Positions 11,908 to 20,654 of a stretch of 64,000 nt of DNA are shown in pieces. Position 1 is the stretch's first letter, and every line of letters begins with the position of its first letter. Where the stretch lies: NCBI GenBank assembly GCA_039810425.1, contig JBDHWW010000003.1:80206-144205 (forward strand), given 5' to 3'. The DNA is from Pseudobdellovibrionaceae bacterium. GTDB taxonomy: Bacteria; Bdellovibrionota; Bdellovibrionia; Bdellovibrionales; Bdellovibrionaceae. Both the position numbers and the translations under genes were made by a program. The notes beneath the pieces are model-generated. The model was not told the DNA's origin, searched no databases, and saw only the letters and a program-made list of their open reading frames with translations.

Positions 11908-11983
11908 TCCCTTGCGTCTCCACTAGCTAGTACTGCAAAATTAAATGATTATTGACGGCAAAAGTCCACCAGAAGGTTCTCCA

Positions 11984-13693
11984 ATGAACTCTCAAACTGC
12001 AAAAACATCTCCGCTTCGAACAGTTCTGAAAGAACTCGTGCTGCCTTATTGGACACGTTCGGAAGATCGCTGGCGCGCGCGCGGATTGTTGGCTCTCACT
12101 TTGGTGTTGATCGTCGGTATGGTTTACGCCCTAGTTCTACTGAATCGCTGGAATCAAGCGTTCTACGACGCCCTTCAGAACTTGAATAGAGAGGAGTTCA
12201 TCAGCCAGCTATGGCGTTTTTTCTTTATTGCGCTTTTTTACTCCGTGATCATGGCCTTGAAGTTCTATGTTTTGCAGAGCCTCGCCATCAACTGGCGTCA
12301 ATGGATCACCGAAAAAGGCCTGCACCGCTGGCTCAGCGACAAGAACTTCTATTATTGGCAATTCAGCGGACATGAACACGATAATCCCGATCAGCGCCTC
12401 TCTGAAGATATTCACGAACTCACCGACTTGAGCCTCGAAATCTCAGAGAAGGTGATCCGTGAGTTCATCACCTTTGTGTCGTTCATCGGCATTCTCTGGA
12501 GCCTTTCAGGCTCGGCCAAATTCACGGCGTTTGGTTATAACATTGAGCTTTATCGTTACCTTGTTTGGGTTTGCTTGCTTTACGCGGTGGTCGGGACTTT
12601 CATCGTTCACAAGATTGGTCATCCGCTTTCAAAACTCAACTTTATGCAGCAAAAACTCGAGGCGGATTTCCGTTACTTCTTGGTGCGCCTGCGTGAAAAC
12701 AGCGAAAATGTGGCTTTACTCAACGGCGAAAAAGCCGAACAGCAAAAGCTTTCGACCAAATTCTCCCAGGTCGTGGGTAATTTCAAAGCGCTGATCTCGC
12801 GCCAGAAGAAACTGATTCTAACGACGAATATTTACGGTCAGTTGGCTTATATCTTTCCGTTTGTGGTTGCGTCACCAAAAGTGTTCACCAAAGAGATCAC
12901 TCTGGGGCAGCTTTTCCAGATCAGCAGTGCCTTTGGCCAAGTGCAAGGGTCGGTCTCGGTGTTTGTGGATATGTATGCGAAGATCGCGCGACTGCATTCG
13001 GTCGCTCTGCGTTTGGGCGGATTCTTAGGTTTGCTCGAAGAAAATCACGGGCTTCGCGAAAAAGGCCTAAATGGAAAACTCCATGCAACAGAGGGCGCGG
13101 GTCTTTCCGCCGAAGATTTGCGGGTCCTAACGCCACAGCAGCAAACTTTGTTGACCGCCGTAAATCTAAAACTCACCCCAGGACAGAGCTTGCTAATCAC
13201 AGCTCCTTCGGGAAAAGGCAAAACCACCTTGCTTCGCACTCTGAACGGCATTTGGCCTTTCATTGACGGACAGATTCATCTGCCTCGTCACAGCCACCGT
13301 CTTGTGCTCACACAAAAAGCCTACTTACCGATCGGCACCCTGCGCGCGGCTCTGGCCTACCCGCTTTCCGCCGAAGCCTTCAGCGATCAAGACATGGTTA
13401 CAGCTTTGGCCGGCACGAAATTGAACTCACTCATTCAGCATCTTGATGACGAAGACTACTGGTCGCAACGTCTTTCTTCCGGCGAGCAACAGCGTTTGGC
13501 GCTGGCGCGTGCCTTCTTGCAAAAACCCGAAGTTTTGTTTTTAGACGAAGCCACTTCCGCCCTCGAAAAAGACACCGAAGCCGAGATCTACCAAGCTCTG
13601 ATAAAATCCTTCCCCAAGATGATTCTTATCAGCTTCAGTCACGAAGCTGGCCCTCTCGCGGCTTTCCACCAAAAAACTCTGGCATTGCTCTGA
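11984..13693 (+). CDS. Fused ABC transporter, ABC_membrane_2 (YddA/BclA/ABCD-like)
   Basis: DNPDQR, EADFRY, Walker A APSGKGKT, LSSGEQQR, LDEATSAL; track start 11945, alternative start 11984. Confidence 0.9.
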   Translation: MNSQTAKTSPLRTVLKELVLPYWTRSEDRWRARGLLALTLVLIVGMVYALVLLNRWNQAFYDALQNLNREEFISQLWRFFFIALFYSVIMALKFYVLQSLAINWRQWITEKGLHRWLSDKNFYYWQFSGHEHDNPDQRLSEDIHELTDLSLEISEKVIREFITFVSFIGILWSLSGSAKFTAFGYNIELYRYLVWVCLLYAVVGTFIVHKIGHPLSKLNFMQQKLEADFRYFLVRLRENSENVALLNGEKAEQQKLSTKFSQVVGNFKALISRQKKLILTTNIYGQLAYIFPFVVASPKVFTKEITLGQLFQISSAFGQVQGSVSVFVDMYAKIARLHSVALRLGGFLGLLEENHGLREKGLNGKLHATEGAGLSAEDLRVLTPQQQTLLTAVNLKLTPGQSLLITAPSGKGKTTLLRTLNGIWPFIDGQIHLPRHSHRLVLTQKAYLPIGTLRAALAYPLSAEAFSDQDMVTALAGTKLNSLIQHLDDEDYWSQRLSSGEQQRLALARAFLQKPEVLFLDEATSALEKDTEAEIYQALIKSFPKMILISFSHEAGPLAAFHQKTLALL

Positions 13694-13812
13694 GACCGTT
13701 CTTTCACCGTTCACAGCAGAGCCCAGAGACCTATGAAGCTCACGCAGGTCCATTCAGCCAGCGTGAAAATAATGTTGAGCAAGCAAGAATAAAAAAAGCA
13801 TCCAACCGGCTG

Positions 13813-14031
13813 CTAACGGAGACGACCGAGGGTCACGCCTGTCTCTTTGGCGATGAGGGCGGCGGAAATTTTCGCAACTCCCCCACCGAAACTCCTACCC
13901 AGCAAAATACAATCTGGCCGGCGCCCCTGCCACTCGGATGCCAAGAACTTTCCGGTACGATAAAGGCCTGACTGAATCTCATCACAAATCATCGGAATAT
14001 GGCGCGGTTTAAAAAGAAACCCGACTTTCAC
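13813..14031 (-). pseudogene. Fragment of class III PLP-dependent aminotransferase
   Basis: ICDEIQSGLYRTGKFLASEW...PDCILLGRSFGGG matches the DE(I/V)QxGxGRTG...PD...GKxxGGG signature; only ~50 aa; catalytic Lys position is Arg. Confidence 0.75.
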
Positions 14032-14343
14032 CGATCATGCTTTGGCTCGGAGATCATGGCGATTTCCAGACTTTGCTAGCCGTGCCTGAAAAAATCTCCG
14101 CGAGCTCCCAAGTGGACGCTTTTCCGTGATTGGGCCGCTGGCAAAGCAAAGAACACTATTCGCCTTCGAGCGCCTCATCGAGTCCGTGCAAGAGTTTAAA
14201 AAATCAAATTTGAAGGCCGAAGTCTTCGACAAAGAGGTAATAGTTACATTGTGCCCCTACACGGGGTTCTGGCGCCAAGTTTGATACTTTATTCTAACTA
14301 CTTATTTTTACTTGTCTTTTAAGCGTGGTGGCAAAATAAAAAT

Positions 14344-14359
14344 TGGCCCTTGAATTGCA
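14344..14359 (+). promoter_or_regulatory. sigma54 (-24/-12) promoter of the rSAM-peptide-HK-RR operon
   Basis: TGGCCC-TTGAA-TTGCA, one mismatch from TGGCAC-N5-TTGCW with correct spacing. Confidence 0.75.
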
Positions 14360-14424
14360 TATTTTTAGCCTTGGAAGTGGATGGTGACATAAGGTCACCA
14401 GTTGGCCACTATTGGGGACGACTC

Positions 14425-15732
14425 ATGGAACTACGACGCTACAAAGACATCCTAGCGCTAAAATCAGAAGAGGGCACTCTTCTGGCGTTTCATTCGCGCA
14501 ACATGGAGGTCGCTCAAATCTCAGAAAGCGCCTGGGTGAACATGAACCCAACAACGTTGCTGAATTCGAACCCTTCGAAGGTTGTGCTCCAAGAATGCGA
14601 AGCCCTCGAAGAGCTCAAAACTTGGAACCAGGAAGACAACGCTCAGGTTAAAACCAGCAAGATCAGCAACAACATCCGCTTTCTTACAATCAACGTGACT
14701 CAAATCTGCAACCTCCACTGCTCCTACTGCGCGGCGGGCGGCGACGGTACGTTCGGCGATAGCATCGCCAAAATCTCTATCGAAAAAACCTTACCGCAGA
14801 TCAAGTTCTTCCTCGATCGTTTGCCACAAGGCTTAAGCTTCAACGTAAGCTTCCTCGGTGGCGAGCCTTTGCTTTATGCTGAAGGCCTCGAGATGATTGC
14901 GAAATATATTGCTGACATCGCCCCTGAACGCAGCGTGAATTACACGATCATCACGAACGGCACATTGCTGACGGACAAAAATGTTGATTTGCTGGCACGC
15001 ATGAAAGCCACCGTGACGATCAGCCTTGACGGTCCTGCGGAGATCAACGATCGCATGCGTCCGACCAAGAACGGAACTTCATCAACGGCGATGATCGTGA
15101 AAGGCCTTGAAAAAGTCCTCGCACGCAAATCAGAATTCAGCCACGTGATGATTCACGGAGTTTTCGATAGCCAAAACATGGCGCTTGTGAAAGCTTACGA
15201 GTTCTATTCCCAATTCAACGTGGACAGCTATGATTTTTCATTCTCGGTTTCTGACAACAATCCCCGCGCGACTCAAGAGTACATGGAACAAATGACTCAA
15301 GTCGCCGCGCTGGCTTACGCTCAAGGTGGCGAGAGGGCTCTCAGAAAGATCCGCGCGTTTGAACAGCATTTTCAGTCGTTGGACCAACAACGCCGTACCG
15401 AAAACTATTGCGGCGCCGGCAAGTCCTTCTTGATGATTGATGCCCGCAATCAGATCTACACCTGCCCTTGGGATGTGAATGAAAAGAAAGAGCAAGTTGG
15501 CCAAGGAACAGAGTTAAGCGAAAAGGCTTTGGAAGCGTACCAAAAGCCGATTCTCGAACAGAACAAATGTGAAACCTGCTGGGCGCGATTCCTATGCGGC
15601 GGCGGCTGTATGTTCGCCCATAAGCATGGCTCAGGATCTAAGAACGTTAAAAATACGCTGTTTTGCGAAAGAACAAGATTTATGGTAGCGCTGGCATTGA
15701 TCTACTATGAGCGATGCCGAAGCGCCGCCTGA
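14425..15732 (+). CDS. Radical SAM/SPASM peptide maturase (CteB/PapB/QhpD-like) with RRE-like N-terminus
   Basis: CNLHCSYC; GGEP; SPASM CGAG...YTC...CETCWARFLCGGGC...FC; start ATG 14425 after GGGGA RBS. Confidence 0.9.
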   Translation: MELRRYKDILALKSEEGTLLAFHSRNMEVAQISESAWVNMNPTTLLNSNPSKVVLQECEALEELKTWNQEDNAQVKTSKISNNIRFLTINVTQICNLHCSYCAAGGDGTFGDSIAKISIEKTLPQIKFFLDRLPQGLSFNVSFLGGEPLLYAEGLEMIAKYIADIAPERSVNYTIITNGTLLTDKNVDLLARMKATVTISLDGPAEINDRMRPTKNGTSSTAMIVKGLEKVLARKSEFSHVMIHGVFDSQNMALVKAYEFYSQFNVDSYDFSFSVSDNNPRATQEYMEQMTQVAALAYAQGGERALRKIRAFEQHFQSLDQQRRTENYCGAGKSFLMIDARNQIYTCPWDVNEKKEQVGQGTELSEKALEAYQKPILEQNKCETCWARFLCGGGCMFAHKHGSGSKNVKNTLFCERTRFMVALALIYYERCRSAA

Positions 15733-15763
15733 ACCACAACCACCAGGACATGATGGAGCAATA

Positions 15764-15931
15764 ATGATGAAATTCCTAACTCTACTAAAGGAAAAGATGA
15801 TGGAAAAAATAGAGAAAAAACACATTAAGAAGCTGAAGCCACAAACATCTCAGCCTTCGCATTTTGGGCCTGGTAACGGCGGCAATCCGTGCCCTCCAGT
15901 CGGTGGCGATATTATGGTACCAAACAACTAG
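15764..15931 (+). CDS. Putative RiPP precursor peptide (55 aa, or 44 aa from ATG 15797)
   Basis: MMKFLTLLKEKMMEKIEKKHIKKLKPQTSQPSHFGPGNGGNPCPPVGGDIMVPNN; GGAG RBS at 15755 and AAGGA before 15797; fills the gap between maturase and kinase. Confidence 0.7.
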   Translation: MMKFLTLLKEKMMEKIEKKHIKKLKPQTSQPSHFGPGNGGNPCPPVGGDIMVPNN

Positions 15932-15950
15932 TTTGAGGAACTGACTAACG

Positions 15951-17828
15951 ATGGCACTTCCTCCTTCGCAGACTAAAACAAAAGGCCCTTTCAAAGGTGG
16001 AATCTTGTATTCCGTCTTGCGCCTTGTTTTGGCTTGCGCGATGGGCGTTTTCATCAGTCAGCTCAAACTCGATTCTTGGGAATCCATGCTCTACGACATG
16101 CGCGTTCGCTTGTTGCCGGAGCCCGCTCCTTCGGGTCAGATTGAAATGATTTTGACCACATCGCGGACGGTAGAAACCCTCAAAGGGATTCCTACTGCGA
16201 AGGAGCAATTGGAACTCCTTAAGAACCTCGAACGCGAAGAGCCTCTGGCGGTTCTTTACATCCAAAACCTCGGCGAGCTTGAAGGAAGTGCTGAAGAAAA
16301 AAAAGCCTTCGCCGCTGAAGCTTTGAAGCTCAACAACCTGTACATGGCCAGCCAGGATCTTGAAATGAAAGGCGAAGAGGGAAAGCTCCGCCTGGCGGAG
16401 CCACTCAATACGATTGAACTCTTCCCCGGCCCACGCACCAGTGATGGCGATGTGCTTGCCCAGGATAAGGTGACCCGTCGTATGATGATCACTTACCAAG
16501 ACCGCCAGATGATTCACCCCTTTATTGCCAGCCTTGTGAATCCTGAAGTTTCCAAAAAGGAAAATATCCGCGGTCTGTTTGAGTTCTTTGACTCTGAACA
16601 GGTATATATCAGTTACCGCAAAGCTGACACGTATCCAATGACGGCATTTGAAGACGTCATGGATAAACGTTTTGAACCGGGTCACTTTAAAAACAAAATC
16701 GTTCTGATCGGTAACGATCACGGCGGCTCCGTGCGTGACTACGTGAAGACGCCATTTTCCAAAGACGCGAAGGCCATGACCCTCGTGGAACTTCACGCCA
16801 ATATGCTTGATACTTTGATTCAAAATAAAGCGCCGATTCAGGCGGCCCCCTGGTTGAACGTATTGGTGACGATACTAACGTCCATCATCACCGTTTACGT
16901 TCTCTTCACAATGAAACCAATTCGAAGTCTCACGATTCTGGCGGCGACCGGCGGTGCCTTACTCGTATTCAGTGCGATCGCTTTCTGGCCCATCGGCTAT
17001 TGGGTGAAGATGGCGCATCCCTTCCTGGCGATCTTCTTGTGCTATTACTTCTTTATCCCCTACCGCTTGATCATCGAAAATCGTCGCAGTTGGGAATACT
17101 ACCAGAAAAATAAGCTGCTTTCCCAAGTTGAGGAACTCAAAGGCAACTTCATTTCGATGATGTCGCACGATTTAAAAACGCCGATTGCCCGTATTCAAGG
17201 CATGACCGATGTGATTCTCAAGGACCAACAACCCTTGAGCACCCAGCAACGCGAAGCCGTGGATACGATCCGTCATTCCGGTGACGATCTTTTGCGGTTC
17301 ATCAATGCGATTTTGAACTACGGTAAGATCGAGAGCCAAGGGGTCCAACTGCATATGCAAAGTCGGGACGTTAATTCATTGCTGAAAGACGTTATCCATA
17401 AGCATGAGTTCCTGGCTAAGGTAAAACGTATTCCGATTAAGTTTGAATCCGAGCCTTTATTTCCGATCCAGGTGGACCCCGAGCTCATGAAGCAAGTGTT
17501 CTCGAACCTTATAGAGAACGCCATTAAGTACAGCCCTGAGGAATCTCAGGTGCAGGTTCACAGCGAAGAGGTTAACGGCAAAGTGATCGTTCGCGTCCAA
17601 GACAGCGGACCTGGAATTCCAGAGGACGAAGTGAGCAACATTTTTATGAAGTTTTTTAGAAGCAAGAATGCGAAAAGTTCTCCGATTAAAGGATCGGGAC
17701 TCGGGTTGTACCTTGCTAAATATTTTACAGAATTGCACCAGGGCAGAATCTTTGTTGAAAGTACCTATGGAAAAGGATGTACTTTTACTGTAGAACTGCC
17801 TCTGGAACAGGGGAGGTCACATGCTTAG
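15951..17828 (+). CDS. CHASE2-domain sensor histidine kinase
   Basis: N-terminal TM, CHASE2 signatures (DKVTRR, FKNKIVLIG, VELHAN), 3 TMs, H-box SHDLKTP, NLIENAIKY, DSGPGI, GSGLGL. Confidence 0.93.
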   Translation: MALPPSQTKTKGPFKGGILYSVLRLVLACAMGVFISQLKLDSWESMLYDMRVRLLPEPAPSGQIEMILTTSRTVETLKGIPTAKEQLELLKNLEREEPLAVLYIQNLGELEGSAEEKKAFAAEALKLNNLYMASQDLEMKGEEGKLRLAEPLNTIELFPGPRTSDGDVLAQDKVTRRMMITYQDRQMIHPFIASLVNPEVSKKENIRGLFEFFDSEQVYISYRKADTYPMTAFEDVMDKRFEPGHFKNKIVLIGNDHGGSVRDYVKTPFSKDAKAMTLVELHANMLDTLIQNKAPIQAAPWLNVLVTILTSIITVYVLFTMKPIRSLTILAATGGALLVFSAIAFWPIGYWVKMAHPFLAIFLCYYFFIPYRLIIENRRSWEYYQKNKLLSQVEELKGNFISMMSHDLKTPIARIQGMTDVILKDQQPLSTQQREAVDTIRHSGDDLLRFINAILNYGKIESQGVQLHMQSRDVNSLLKDVIHKHEFLAKVKRIPIKFESEPLFPIQVDPELMKQVFSNLIENAIKYSPEESQVQVHSEEVNGKVIVRVQDSGPGIPEDEVSNIFMKFFRSKNAKSSPIKGSGLGLYLAKYFTELHQGRIFVESTYGKGCTFTVELPLEQGRSHA

Positions 17829-19353
17829 AGTTTTGGTGGTCGATGATGATCAGGGATTAAGACTCTCAGTCAAAACAGCGCTCACGACGTCGAATCGTTT
17901 TGAAGTTGAAGAGGCCTTTGACGGCCTGAATGCCATCGAGAAAGTAAAGGCACCTGAGAACTCAGGCGTAAAGAAGTTCGATGTTGTTATTCTTGATGTC
18001 GACATGCCACGTATCAACGGTCTGGAAGCACTCAGACTGATCAAAGAACATGATCCAGGAATCATCGTATTGATGATCACGGCCCATGCAACTTTAGACC
18101 ATGCGGTTCAAGCGGTCAAAGACGGCGCTTACAACTATCTTTCAAAACCTGTTTCCGGCGATGAACTCTTGGCCCTGGTGGATAAAGCAGTTTCCGCGCA
18201 CACGATGATTTCAAACATCGCGGCATCGGCACCCGTGCTGGTGGAAGCGGGACGCAAGATTATCGGTAACACCCAGCAAATGCAGAAAGTTTTCAACATC
18301 ATTCACCGTCTGGCGAAGGTTGATACTCCCGTGTTGATTCGCGGCGCTTCTGGTTCTGGTAAAGAACTCGTTGCGAAAGCGATCCACTACAATTCTGCCC
18401 GTAAGGATGAAAAGTTCGTGGCCATCAACTGTTCTGCGATCCCGGAGAACTTGTTTGAATCAGAACTCTTCGGTCACGAAAAGGGTTCTTTCACTGGCGC
18501 GGATCAGCGCAAAATTGGTAAGTTCCAGTTTGCGGAAGGCGGAACATTGTTCTTGGATGAAGTAGGCGATATGCCACTCATGATGCAAGTTAAGATCTTG
18601 CGCGTCCTCCAAGAGAAAATGTTCACCCCGGTGGGTTCAAACCGCGAGATTTCAACAAACGTAAGAATCGTGGCGGCGACAAACCGTCCTTTGGAAGACA
18701 TGATCAAGGCCGGCACGTTCCGCGAAGACTTGTTCTATCGCTTGAATGTGGTCCCTATCTTCTTGCCCGCTTTGGCTGACCGCAAAGACGACATCGAGAA
18801 CTTGATCAACATCTTCATCAAAAAGTTCAATGCAGCTCATGGCAAACGCATCTCTGGTGTGGCTCCAGATGCTTTGTCAGCGCTCAAGAAATACCAATGG
18901 CCGGGCAACATCCGTGAGTTGGAAAATGTGATTGAACATGCTTTCGTTCTTGAGACCCACAACATGATCACATTGGCGTCACTCCCAGAAGCGGTTTTGG
19001 CCGCAGCGGGTGTAAACTTGATTGATGCGTTGGCTCAGCCTGCGGTTGTTGATACGAAAGCGGCGGCTTCTATGTCCACAGACCTCGGTGACGATGAGGA
19101 TTTAGGCGTTGTTGATAGCGAAGACCTCGCGTTGGACAATGACGAAGGCGAAGTTGCAACTGTTTCTATTTCAGCTGGCAGCCTCGATTTTAACGCCCAA
19201 AAGGAAGCTTTCGAGAAAGAGTTCATCATCAAGGCTCTGAAGACCTTTAAAGGCCGCATCAACCAAACGGCTTTGCATGCTAACATTCCAAAGAAGACCC
19301 TGCTCCGCAAGATCGAAAAATATGGAATCATCGCAAAGGATTACTCTGTTTAA
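17821..19353 (+). CDS. NtrC-family sigma54-dependent response regulator (REC-AAA+-Fis HTH)
   Basis: VVDDD/LDVDMP receiver, GASGSGKE, ESELFGHEKGSFTGA, LDEVG, WPGNIREL, C-terminal HTH; overlaps HK stop. Confidence 0.95.
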   Translation: MLRVLVVDDDQGLRLSVKTALTTSNRFEVEEAFDGLNAIEKVKAPENSGVKKFDVVILDVDMPRINGLEALRLIKEHDPGIIVLMITAHATLDHAVQAVKDGAYNYLSKPVSGDELLALVDKAVSAHTMISNIAASAPVLVEAGRKIIGNTQQMQKVFNIIHRLAKVDTPVLIRGASGSGKELVAKAIHYNSARKDEKFVAINCSAIPENLFESELFGHEKGSFTGADQRKIGKFQFAEGGTLFLDEVGDMPLMMQVKILRVLQEKMFTPVGSNREISTNVRIVAATNRPLEDMIKAGTFREDLFYRLNVVPIFLPALADRKDDIENLINIFIKKFNAAHGKRISGVAPDALSALKKYQWPGNIRELENVIEHAFVLETHNMITLASLPEAVLAAAGVNLIDALAQPAVVDTKAAASMSTDLGDDEDLGVVDSEDLALDNDEGEVATVSISAGSLDFNAQKEAFEKEFIIKALKTFKGRINQTALHANIPKKTLLRKIEKYGIIAKDYSV

Positions 19354-19385
19354 TCAAGTCAAGTATAGTGAGCACATTTCAAAAC

Positions 19386-19414
19386 CCGGCCGCAAGAAAA
19401 CGGCCGGTTTTTTT
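19386..19414 (+). terminator. Rho-independent terminator
   Basis: CCGGCCG-CAAGAAAA-CGGCCGG followed by T7. Confidence 0.85.
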
Positions 19415-19523
19415 ACCTCAACGATGATGAGGCTCAGGTTTCGACAAATAAATAACTAAATTATCATTAGCCCTTCACTTAGTTTCTAGATACGGTTTAA
19501 TAGTTAAAACCATAAAAACAAGG

Positions 19524-20654
19524 ATGGCTACAATGAAAACTCTTCTGACACTATTAGGTGCAGCGCTTGTCTCCGCCAGTGCACATGCAAACTCTTTGGG
19601 CTTTGATTTTCGCGGTGATGTTCAAAGCATCGATTACAACGACGCCGCGGGCGCTTCTGACTACACCCGCTTTTACCTGAAAACCGGGCGGTTGTACTAC
19701 AAAGGCACCGTCAATGACCGCTTCAGCTATGATCTCCGCCTGGGTTTCTATAAGCCCGCCGCCGACAATGTTTCAGCCGCAGGAGTGCCCGCCAATAGCC
19801 GACGCGATTCTGTCAATAGCTCCGTTGAGTATGCCTTCATGACCGACAAGATGAGTGACAACTTTGTCTTATCCATTGGTAAGCTCAATTCAGAAATCGG
19901 CGGCTTTGAAGGGGCTTCATCCGGCGCGGACCTCTACATGGTTTCTCCTTTTTACCAACACAGTGCTGCTGTCGGCCTGTCGGGCGGCAACATCGGCATC
20001 AACGAATCGGGCACGCGCAATCTTCTCTACACGGCGGGCCTTAAAGGCGATATCAGCTTTTCGGACCAACACATTTACCTGGTAGCGGTGAATAATATCA
20101 CGGATGCGACGGACTCAAGCTCGGCAACCGGCACCTTTAACCAAAATCGTGGTATGATGGGTGTGATTTGGAAAGGCTCTTTCATGGATAAAGCCCTGAC
20201 CGGCCTGCTCAGTTACCACACCGTCAGCCCGCAAGGGGCCGGCGCTGGCGGCCAAACAAACCCGGATAATAAGCATGACTTCATTTCTGCAGGCGCTAAA
20301 TATGAAGATGCCACTTGGGTCGGCAGCCTTGAGTACAGTACGACGACATTTAAAGACGGAGCCAGTGGCAACAAGGACCAAGTCTATGCGGCCATTGCAA
20401 AATTTGGCTACAAGCTCGATTCATGGACTCCACGTTTAGAAGTTTTCACCTCTGAGGAAAAACGCGAAGTTGGAGTCACTGAAACCAACAAGTTCATGGG
20501 GGTCGGCGCGGTTGTTGAATACAAACCCACCGCTGAAAATGTCCGTTACCATTTGGCCTACAATAGCATCACGACAGACCCGGAAACCGGCGATAACAAG
20601 ATCCGAAATGAACTGGTACTGGGCGCACGCCTGTACGGCGATTTCCTGAAATAG
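19524..20654 (+). CDS. Outer-membrane porin (OprO/OprP-like)
   Basis: Signal peptide AHA cleavage; beta-strand pattern; EYAF...LSIGK...GGFE segment typical of these porins. Confidence 0.65.
   Translation: MATMKTLLTLLGAALVSASAHANSLGFDFRGDVQSIDYNDAAGASDYTRFYLKTGRLYYKGTVNDRFSYDLRLGFYKPAADNVSAAGVPANSRRDSVNSSVEYAFMTDKMSDNFVLSIGKLNSEIGGFEGASSGADLYMVSPFYQHSAAVGLSGGNIGINESGTRNLLYTAGLKGDISFSDQHIYLVAVNNITDATDSSSATGTFNQNRGMMGVIWKGSFMDKALTGLLSYHTVSPQGAGAGGQTNPDNKHDFISAGAKYEDATWVGSLEYSTTTFKDGASGNKDQVYAAIAKFGYKLDSWTPRLEVFTSEEKREVGVTETNKFMGVGAVVEYKPTAENVRYHLAYNSITTDPETGDNKIRNELVLGARLYGDFLK

Follow-up and report, generated by a model that had tools for sequence, protein, structure and literature searches.

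A 64-kb window of a Pseudobdellovibrionaceae genome (contig JBDHWW010000003.1, positions 80,206 to 144,205; the window hereafter) carries four genes on the + strand that encode, in this order, a radical S-adenosylmethionine (SAM)/SPASM maturase, a 55-aa peptide, a CHASE2 histidine kinase and a sigma-54 activator (Table 1). We propose, with a probability of about 0.45, that this cassette is an old, vertically inherited and autoregulated two-component operon that captured a module for a peptide synthesized ribosomally and modified after translation (RiPP) between its promoter and its kinase gene, and that the peptide is an output of the system.

The four genes are supported as a single sigma-54-dependent operon. 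Based on the coordinates of the open reading frames (ORFs), 31 bp separate the maturase gene from the peptide gene and 19 bp the peptide gene from the kinase gene, and the kinase and regulator genes overlap by 8 bp. This co-directional arrangement agrees with the initial annotation of the DNA, which had also placed a strong terminator at the operon end only; the hairpin at 19386-19407 is indeed the sole strong terminator, and the other + strand candidates inside the operon have poor T tails (10 terminator-like sites were found, against a shuffle mean of 7.8). The median intergenic gaps among 35 loci are 9 bp (maturase-peptide), 15.5 bp (peptide-kinase) and 26 bp (kinase-regulator), and a sigma-54 motif falls in an internal gap at only one of these loci. 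An Rfam search of 13600-19700 returned nothing credible, with no known riboswitch or leader and a single, spurious long non-coding RNA match (E-value 0.43). At the front of the operon, TGGCCCTTGAATTGCA is the only TGGC-N7-TTGCW match in the window, where 1.5 matches are expected by chance, so the match by itself proves nothing. The weight of this promoter comes from its conservation in relatives: GG-N8-TTGCW occurs at most 220 bp upstream of the maturase gene in 33 of 38 loci, against 1.1 expected from the remaining sequence of the same loci, and the other five carry degenerate versions. The -24/-12 promoter of the initial annotation is thereby borne out.

Related loci with wider flanks (37 in all) were compared by tblastn, and within the Bdellovibrio family the cassette belongs to the vertically inherited core. 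Of 61 genomes of the order, 40 have a maturase match, among them 34 of the 36 other genomes of the window's family; in a phylum sample it was detected in 19 of 151 genomes, nearly all from the same order. The named relatives are Bdellovibrio species, including four strains of B. bacteriovorus, with 49-52% identity. The kinase gene directly follows the peptide gene on the strand of the maturase in 36 of the 36 related loci with DNA there, and one locus ends at a contig end. The regulator gene follows the kinase gene on the same strand in 32 of 37 loci, and three loci are cut by contig ends. At one locus (L063) the regulator gene is divergent and lies upstream of the maturase gene (1169-2710, - strand), still linked to the cassette; at another (L066) no regulator match was found within the remaining 1.5 kb. 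The regulator is the most conserved of the four proteins (60-96% identity across loci), followed by the kinase (38-96%) and the maturase (33-95%). Furthermore, in most genera the regulator gene is followed by a gene for a conserved 161-aa protein (p161) and then by the isoleucyl-tRNA synthetase (IleRS) gene, with or without the maturase, and a class A penicillin-binding protein and a metallo-beta-lactamase-fold protein recur upstream. Since these flanking genes recur across genera, the cassette occupies a core chromosomal neighbourhood rather than a mobile biosynthetic island.

The two-component pair appears to predate the RiPP module or to be independent of it. A kinase orthologue, searched for with the N-terminal CHASE2 half, is present in 53 of 61 relatives, compared with 40 of 61 for the maturase. 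Ten genomes, from six other families of the order plus one genome (G019) of the window's family, contain the kinase-regulator-p161-IleRS block with no maturase match within 4 kb upstream; an eleventh, contig-cut locus was left uncounted. No maturase match was found anywhere in the G019 genome, which is 99% complete. The regulator tree, built by a quick method with many open forks and rooted with three paralogues, places one maturase-less family at the base and the others interspersed; G019, a case of maturase loss, is nested in the maturase-bearing family. At least 3-4 changes in maturase presence are needed on this tree, which does not separate gain from loss overall. At 37 CHASE2 columns conserved in at least 85% of the maturase-bearing kinases, the ten maturase-less kinases keep the same residue at a mean of 0.80, and all ten retain D49, D165, R176 and R177. 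A search upstream in the ten genomes revealed no Cys-x-Pro precursor. Because maturase-less loci occur in several lineages, the two-component pair would work without the RiPP module, and the conserved sensory residues do not track the module. Upstream of the kinase gene of one maturase-less locus (L071), about 1.5 kb away and on the opposite strand, lies a 499-aa ORF of another radical-SAM-like kind (oriented coordinates 937-2436); the maturase of the window does not match it.

The maturase and the peptide are supported as a genuine RiPP pair, since a small ORF lies between the maturase and kinase genes in 37 of 37 loci with DNA there and the radical SAM and SPASM cysteines of the maturase are invariant. 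In the precursor of the window, a basic leader that contains KKHIKKLKP is joined by a Gly-rich linker to the core NPCPPVGGDIMVPNN. The alignment of the precursors displays a basic leader K-H-I-K-K-x-K-P, a variable Gly/Pro-rich linker and a short C-terminal core G-x-G-C-x-P-x-G, which contains the one conserved Cys; this Cys and the Pro at +2 are kept in at least 90% of the precursors, and 3 to 13 residues lie beyond the Cys. The core differs between genera, with NPCPPVGGD in the window's genus and GCIPVR, CVPTGNAPDRD, CVPSGNPPDRD and CIPTGNPPDRD as further examples. The precursor is hydrophilic and basic and has no signal sequence. It is matched by no Pfam or NCBIfam model, and its profile retrieved 15 relatives, all unnamed, from 5.8 billion proteins; exact look-ups of the neighbouring proteins gave generic names only. 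One relative has tandem precursor genes between the maturase and kinase genes, with the cores GCLPIN and GCIPIN (L066:4341-4609).

The maturase matches Pfam Radical_SAM with 65.6 bits. Across 32 orthologues, the CX3CX2C radical SAM motif (C95, C99 and C102) and seven SPASM cysteines (C329, C347, C382, C385, C391, C395 and C414) are invariant, the latter matching the SPASM pattern for two auxiliary clusters. Against the NCBIfam equivalogs the enzyme scores below the cutoffs for SCIFF (139 of 425 bits), PapB (162 of 340) and nif11-like (162 of 519) maturases; CcpM and QhpD maturases are also among the nearest curated families, far under their cutoffs. The closest solved structure is 5wgg (E-value 7e-30), which we take to be the SCIFF maturase CteB. 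An N-terminal extension of 85 residues, where a leader-binding (RRE) domain might lie, takes part in the alignments, which start at residue 1-50 for the NCBIfam maturase models and at residue 53 for 5wgg; the Pfam search found no PqqD match. A thioether cross-link from the single Cys, of the SCIFF/PapB kind, is most likely the modification, judging from these family resemblances. No conserved acceptor residue appears in the precursor alignment, and for this reason the chemistry stays a prediction. The identity of an anaerobic sulfatase maturase, which would make formylglycine, was rejected (88.9 bits against a cutoff of 349; C-x-P-x-R in 3 of 37 precursors). At one locus only, a gene for a 683-aa protein with an FGE-sulfatase (formylglycine-generating enzyme-like) domain lies just upstream on the operon strand (L043:7646-9697, - strand), which is notable in view of the C-x-P core.

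The domain organization of the other two proteins indicates a transmembrane sensor and an enhancer-type activator. CHASE2 spans residues 29-313 of the kinase (82 bits, Pfam cutoff 26.3) and is followed by HisKA and HATPase_c. As read from the sequence, the topology comprises one transmembrane helix, a periplasmic CHASE2 domain at about residues 38-300 and three transmembrane helices. We know of no ligand for any CHASE2 domain. The regulator contains Response_reg, Sigma54_activat (PF00158, 243.8 bits), AAA_lid_14 and HTH_8 (26.8 bits), with a GSFTGA loop of the GAFTGA type and a Fis-type helix-turn-helix. At two loci (L085:543-2840 and L038:583-2787, both - strand) another, larger kinase, weakly similar to the CHASE2 kinase, is encoded divergently from the promoter region of the cassette; by their record titles, the two loci belong to B. 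bacteriovorus strain Bd5 and Bdellovibrio sp. HCB117, respectively.

A conserved dyad flanks the promoter. Run unmasked, a Gibbs motif search recovered the sigma-54 promoter on which the sequences had been selected; with the promoter masked, the search over 29 loci identified a 16-17-bp dyad, GGTGTCAAAATGACAC (GGTGTC-AAAAT-GACACC). Sites of at least 10 bits in a position weight matrix (PWM) of this dyad are found at -135 to -46 from the -24 GG in 19 of 32 loci (0.85 expected) and at +22 to +57 in 20 of 32 (0.34 expected); 10 of 32 loci have the dyad on both sides, and in 13 loci the downstream copy lies at +37 to +41. The upstream site of the window scores 12.9 bits at -102, and its AATAGTTACATTGTG block is nearly invariant in a 7-sequence alignment of the genus, with one substitution, in L036. 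Among the ten maturase-less loci, six have a sigma-54 motif upstream of the kinase gene and five a dyad of 16-18.7 bits (L068, L069, L070, L075 and L077); the dyads of L068 and L073 are located at +38/+39 from the GG. This 6-N5-6 dyad is similar in form to NtrC-type enhancer sites. As the conserved dyad flanks the promoter, autoregulation of the operon is plausible, with the activator as the presumed binder.

The same dyad accompanies other sigma-54-like promoters in the window's genome, which holds 345 TGG-N8-TTGCW sites. Dyads of at least 12 bits cluster at +30 to +59 of these sites (11 position-hits, 0.9 expected). A spacing of +38 to +42 occurs at four promoters: that of this operon, C4:15002, one on C22 (- strand) and C66:2242; the other three precede genes for a lipoprotein, a DUF4360 protein and a further signal-peptide protein. 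Upstream dyads are present at sigma-54-like promoters at C36:5827, at C5:14535 and on C1 (- strand). The genes behind the dyad promoters encode the lipoprotein, DUF4360, an outer-membrane beta-barrel, DUF2388 followed by TonB_C, and other signal-peptide proteins. This pattern would fit a small regulon of secreted and envelope proteins. A further sigma-54-like site, with a dyad at +56, precedes a prolyl oligopeptidase that is encoded by two ORFs with a 4-bp overlap, Peptidase_S9_N (410 aa) and Peptidase_S9 (285 aa), which may represent a frameshift or a split gene (L142, C50:494-2580, - strand).

The immediate surroundings of the operon in the window are partly specific to the genus. The SbmA/BacA-type ABC transporter gene directly upstream recurs in 4 of 6 other examined genomes of the genus, and other genera do not have it there. 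Proline-rich peptides are substrates of such transporters; as the transporter of the system this gene was rejected, being linked within the genus only. A 72-aa ORF (13813-14031, - strand) in the spacer of 650 bp that separates the ABC gene from the operon looks like a gene remnant; it matches the class-III aminotransferase model (403 positions) at positions 224-275 only (Pfam E-value 1.9e-10). The outer-membrane protein gene between the regulator and p161 genes is likewise found in this genus only.

Table 1. Features of the operon, its control region and its neighbours, in window coordinates.
Feature	Position	Strand	Remarks
Sigma-54 (-24/-12) promoter TGGCCCTTGAATTGCA	14344..14359	+	predicted transcription start ~14370
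Upstream dyad-like site, candidate enhancer/upstream activating sequence, contains AATAGTTACATTGTG	14238..14258		~-102 from -24 GG
Perfect dyad GGTGAC-ATAAG-GTCACC (GGTGACATAAGGTCACC)	14383..14399		38 bp past -24 GG, transcript ~+13..+29
Radical SAM/SPASM maturase, 435 aa	14425..15732	+	Pfam Radical_SAM
Precursor peptide, 55 aa	15764..15931	+	ORF between maturase and kinase, GGAG ribosome-binding site
CHASE2 sensor histidine kinase, 625 aa	15951..17828	+	CHASE2 + HisKA + HATPase_c
NtrC-type response regulator/sigma-54 activator, 510 aa	17821..19353	+	assigned by domains and loop
Intrinsic terminator	19386..19417	+	hairpin 19386-19407, 7 G-C pairs, then T7
SbmA/BacA-type ABC transporter	11945..13693	+	ABC_membrane_2 + SbmA_BacA + ABC_tran; directly upstream
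Outer-membrane protein, 376 aa	19524-20654	+	weak Porin_O_P match; between regulator and p161
p161, 161 aa	20957-21442	+	no Pfam/NCBIfam family; precedes IleRS

In the proposed operon with the peptide as output, the kinase would sense an extracytoplasmic cue via CHASE2 and, as its domains suggest, phosphorylate the activator. The activator would then bind the dyad GGTG-N-C-N5-G-N-CACC on both flanks of the promoter and open the sigma-54 complex, raising the expression of all four genes, its own among them, and probably expression from a few further sigma-54 promoters of secreted and envelope proteins. The maturase may recognise the basic K-H-I-K-K-V-K-P leader and act on the single Cys of the G-C-x-P core or on a neighbouring position, with a thioether of the SCIFF/PapB kind as the most likely product. 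Production of the RiPP would thus be confined to times when the system is active. The RiPP does not have to serve as the kinase input in this model, and feedback is possible.

Several observations weigh against this model, some on the regulatory side and some on the side of the peptide. Each locus contributed one site to the training of the dyad PWM, which leaves the second sites and the fixed spacing as the independent evidence. The downstream dyad occupies an unusual position for an enhancer and could be a 5' RNA hairpin or a repressor site; as the motif also occurs in untranscribed DNA, we think a protein-binding site more likely than an RNA hairpin for this copy. The window's genome has 11 sigma-54 activator genes (Sigma54_activat), and all of them encode candidate binders of the dyad. 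A different activator could accordingly drive the promoter, making the operon the target of another regulon instead of a self-activating unit; the dyad is shared with other promoters, so the site does not identify its binder. Yet distant families keep the dyad beside the kinase-regulator operon whether or not the RiPP module is there, which is the pattern expected for autoregulation, and we consider control by another activator distinctly unlikely.

With regard to the peptide, its gene is always the immediate upstream neighbour of the kinase gene, in the agrB-D-C-A order that is expected of a ligand-receptor pair. The distances of the peptide core and of CHASE2 are correlated over 32 loci (r 0.63; partial r 0.42 given the regulator), a partial Mantel result driven largely by seven near-identical members of the genus. 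When the genus is collapsed, a weak trend is left (r 0.23; partials 0.17-0.19; p about 0.04-0.055), and the significance of Mantel-type tests is inflated on related sequences; between the maturase and the peptide core no residual correlation is seen after this step. These data bear on the autoinducing loop of the initial annotation, in which the modified peptide, in the periplasm or the medium, would be the CHASE2 ligand and the activator would induce its own operon, serving density, autocrine or prey-cycle signalling. The loop is favoured by the maturase-peptide-kinase-regulator order under one conserved promoter in 36 of 36 related loci with DNA there, by the short peptide-kinase gap, by a core that varies by genus and by CHASE2 being the fastest-evolving part of the system (mean p-distance 0.62; kinase core 0.35, regulator 0.29). 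It is opposed by the persistence of the kinase-regulator pair without the maturase in 10 genomes of 7 families, with one clear loss, by the unchanged CHASE2 residues and the lack of a Cys-x-Pro precursor in those genomes, and by the nature of the peptide, which is hydrophilic and basic without a signal sequence; the operon encodes no exporter or leader protease, and none is conserved within 3 kb upstream across the 31 loci outside the genus. We regard the loop as rather unlikely. The single operon, the conserved promoter, the RiPP pair and the linked CHASE2 kinase and activator of the proposed circuit stand, and the role of the peptide as ligand is so far unsupported. The expected linkage likewise holds within the family, where the kinase was never found unlinked from the maturase, but not in sister families, where the kinase-regulator pair often occurs alone. 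A more specific version, in which the radical-SAM-modified one-Cys peptide would be the first known CHASE2 ligand and act in an autocrine or quorum loop on the secreted and envelope sigma-54 regulon of Bdellovibrio, the maturase-less lineages having rewired their input, is unlikely in our judgement; if true, such a loop might time the attack on or the exit from prey.

The peptide might also act from the cytoplasm on the kinase or the regulator, like small connector proteins, with the oxygen-labile iron-sulfur maturase gating it by redox, iron or SAM status. This would agree with the missing export signal and exporter, and with a small basic ORF with a good ribosome-binding site that lies between the sigma-54 promoter and the kinase gene in 4 of 10 maturase-less loci. 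Six of the ten loci are nevertheless without such an ORF, and the leader profile recognised none of the four significantly: as leader homologues they were rejected (best E-value 1.9, for an unrelated frame; only the L073 ORF surfaced, at 6.8). We consider such an intracellular modulator very unlikely.

The captured-module reading and its alternatives differ in what the cassette would mean. If the peptide feeds back on the kinase, the operon would be a new chemical type of peptide-pheromone circuit in a Gram-negative bacterium; if not, it would still provide a physiological SCIFF-like RiPP with unusually readable expression logic. B. bacteriovorus, a genetically tractable model predator, carries the cassette; the relatives that naturally lack the maturase can readily serve for comparison, and the dyad is a way into a small sigma-54 regulon of secreted proteins. 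We found no publication on the cassette in the open-access literature and bioRxiv, and we know of no characterised example in which an unannotated RiPP family occurs together with a CHASE2 sensor and a sigma-54 activator.

Among known systems, the SCIFF/CteB and PapB pairs resemble the cassette in the CX3CX2C motif and seven-Cys SPASM domain of the maturase, in the small adjacent Cys-containing precursor and in being among the best family matches. Another shared trait is vertical inheritance within the core genome with no dedicated transporter, as is the case for SCIFF. The differences lie in the core, which has a single Cys in G-C-x-P here, as opposed to six Cys in about 45 residues (SCIFF) or repeated C-x3-D, in the aerobic Gram-negative predator as host, in the co-operonic two-component system and in scores far under the cutoffs (340-519 bits). 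According to the review PMC8102284, a study that it cites linked SCIFF ranthipeptides to quorum sensing in clostridia. This link is the nearest precedent for the cassette. Anaerobic sulfatase maturases are likewise SPASM radical SAM enzymes with a C-x-P substrate motif; here, in contrast, Arg at +4 is found in only 3 of 37 precursors, and the substrate is a peptide and not a sulfatase.

The regulatory half of the cassette can be compared with three further systems. Like agrBDCA and comCDE, it unites a processing enzyme, a peptide, a kinase and a regulator in one operon that is probably self-induced. Unlike them, it has a cytoplasmic iron-sulfur maturase and no membrane protease or exporter, a periplasmic CHASE2 sensor and a sigma-54 AAA+ activator in place of LytTR, and the binding of the peptide to the kinase is hypothetical. 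Streptide, an Rgg/SHP-controlled radical SAM RiPP of streptococci, exemplifies a radical-SAM-modified peptide as the output of a signalling regulator; streptide loci, however, have their own transporter and depend on a cytoplasmic Rgg receptor for a different peptide, whereas here the regulator genes are in the same operon. Finally, the NtrBC system (glnAp2-glnLG) shares with the cassette the -24/-12 promoter, the 6-N5-6 dyad and an activator encoded in the operon that it probably drives, and the cassette differs in one dyad located downstream within the transcript, in its CHASE2 sensor and in the RiPP pair that it carries as cargo.

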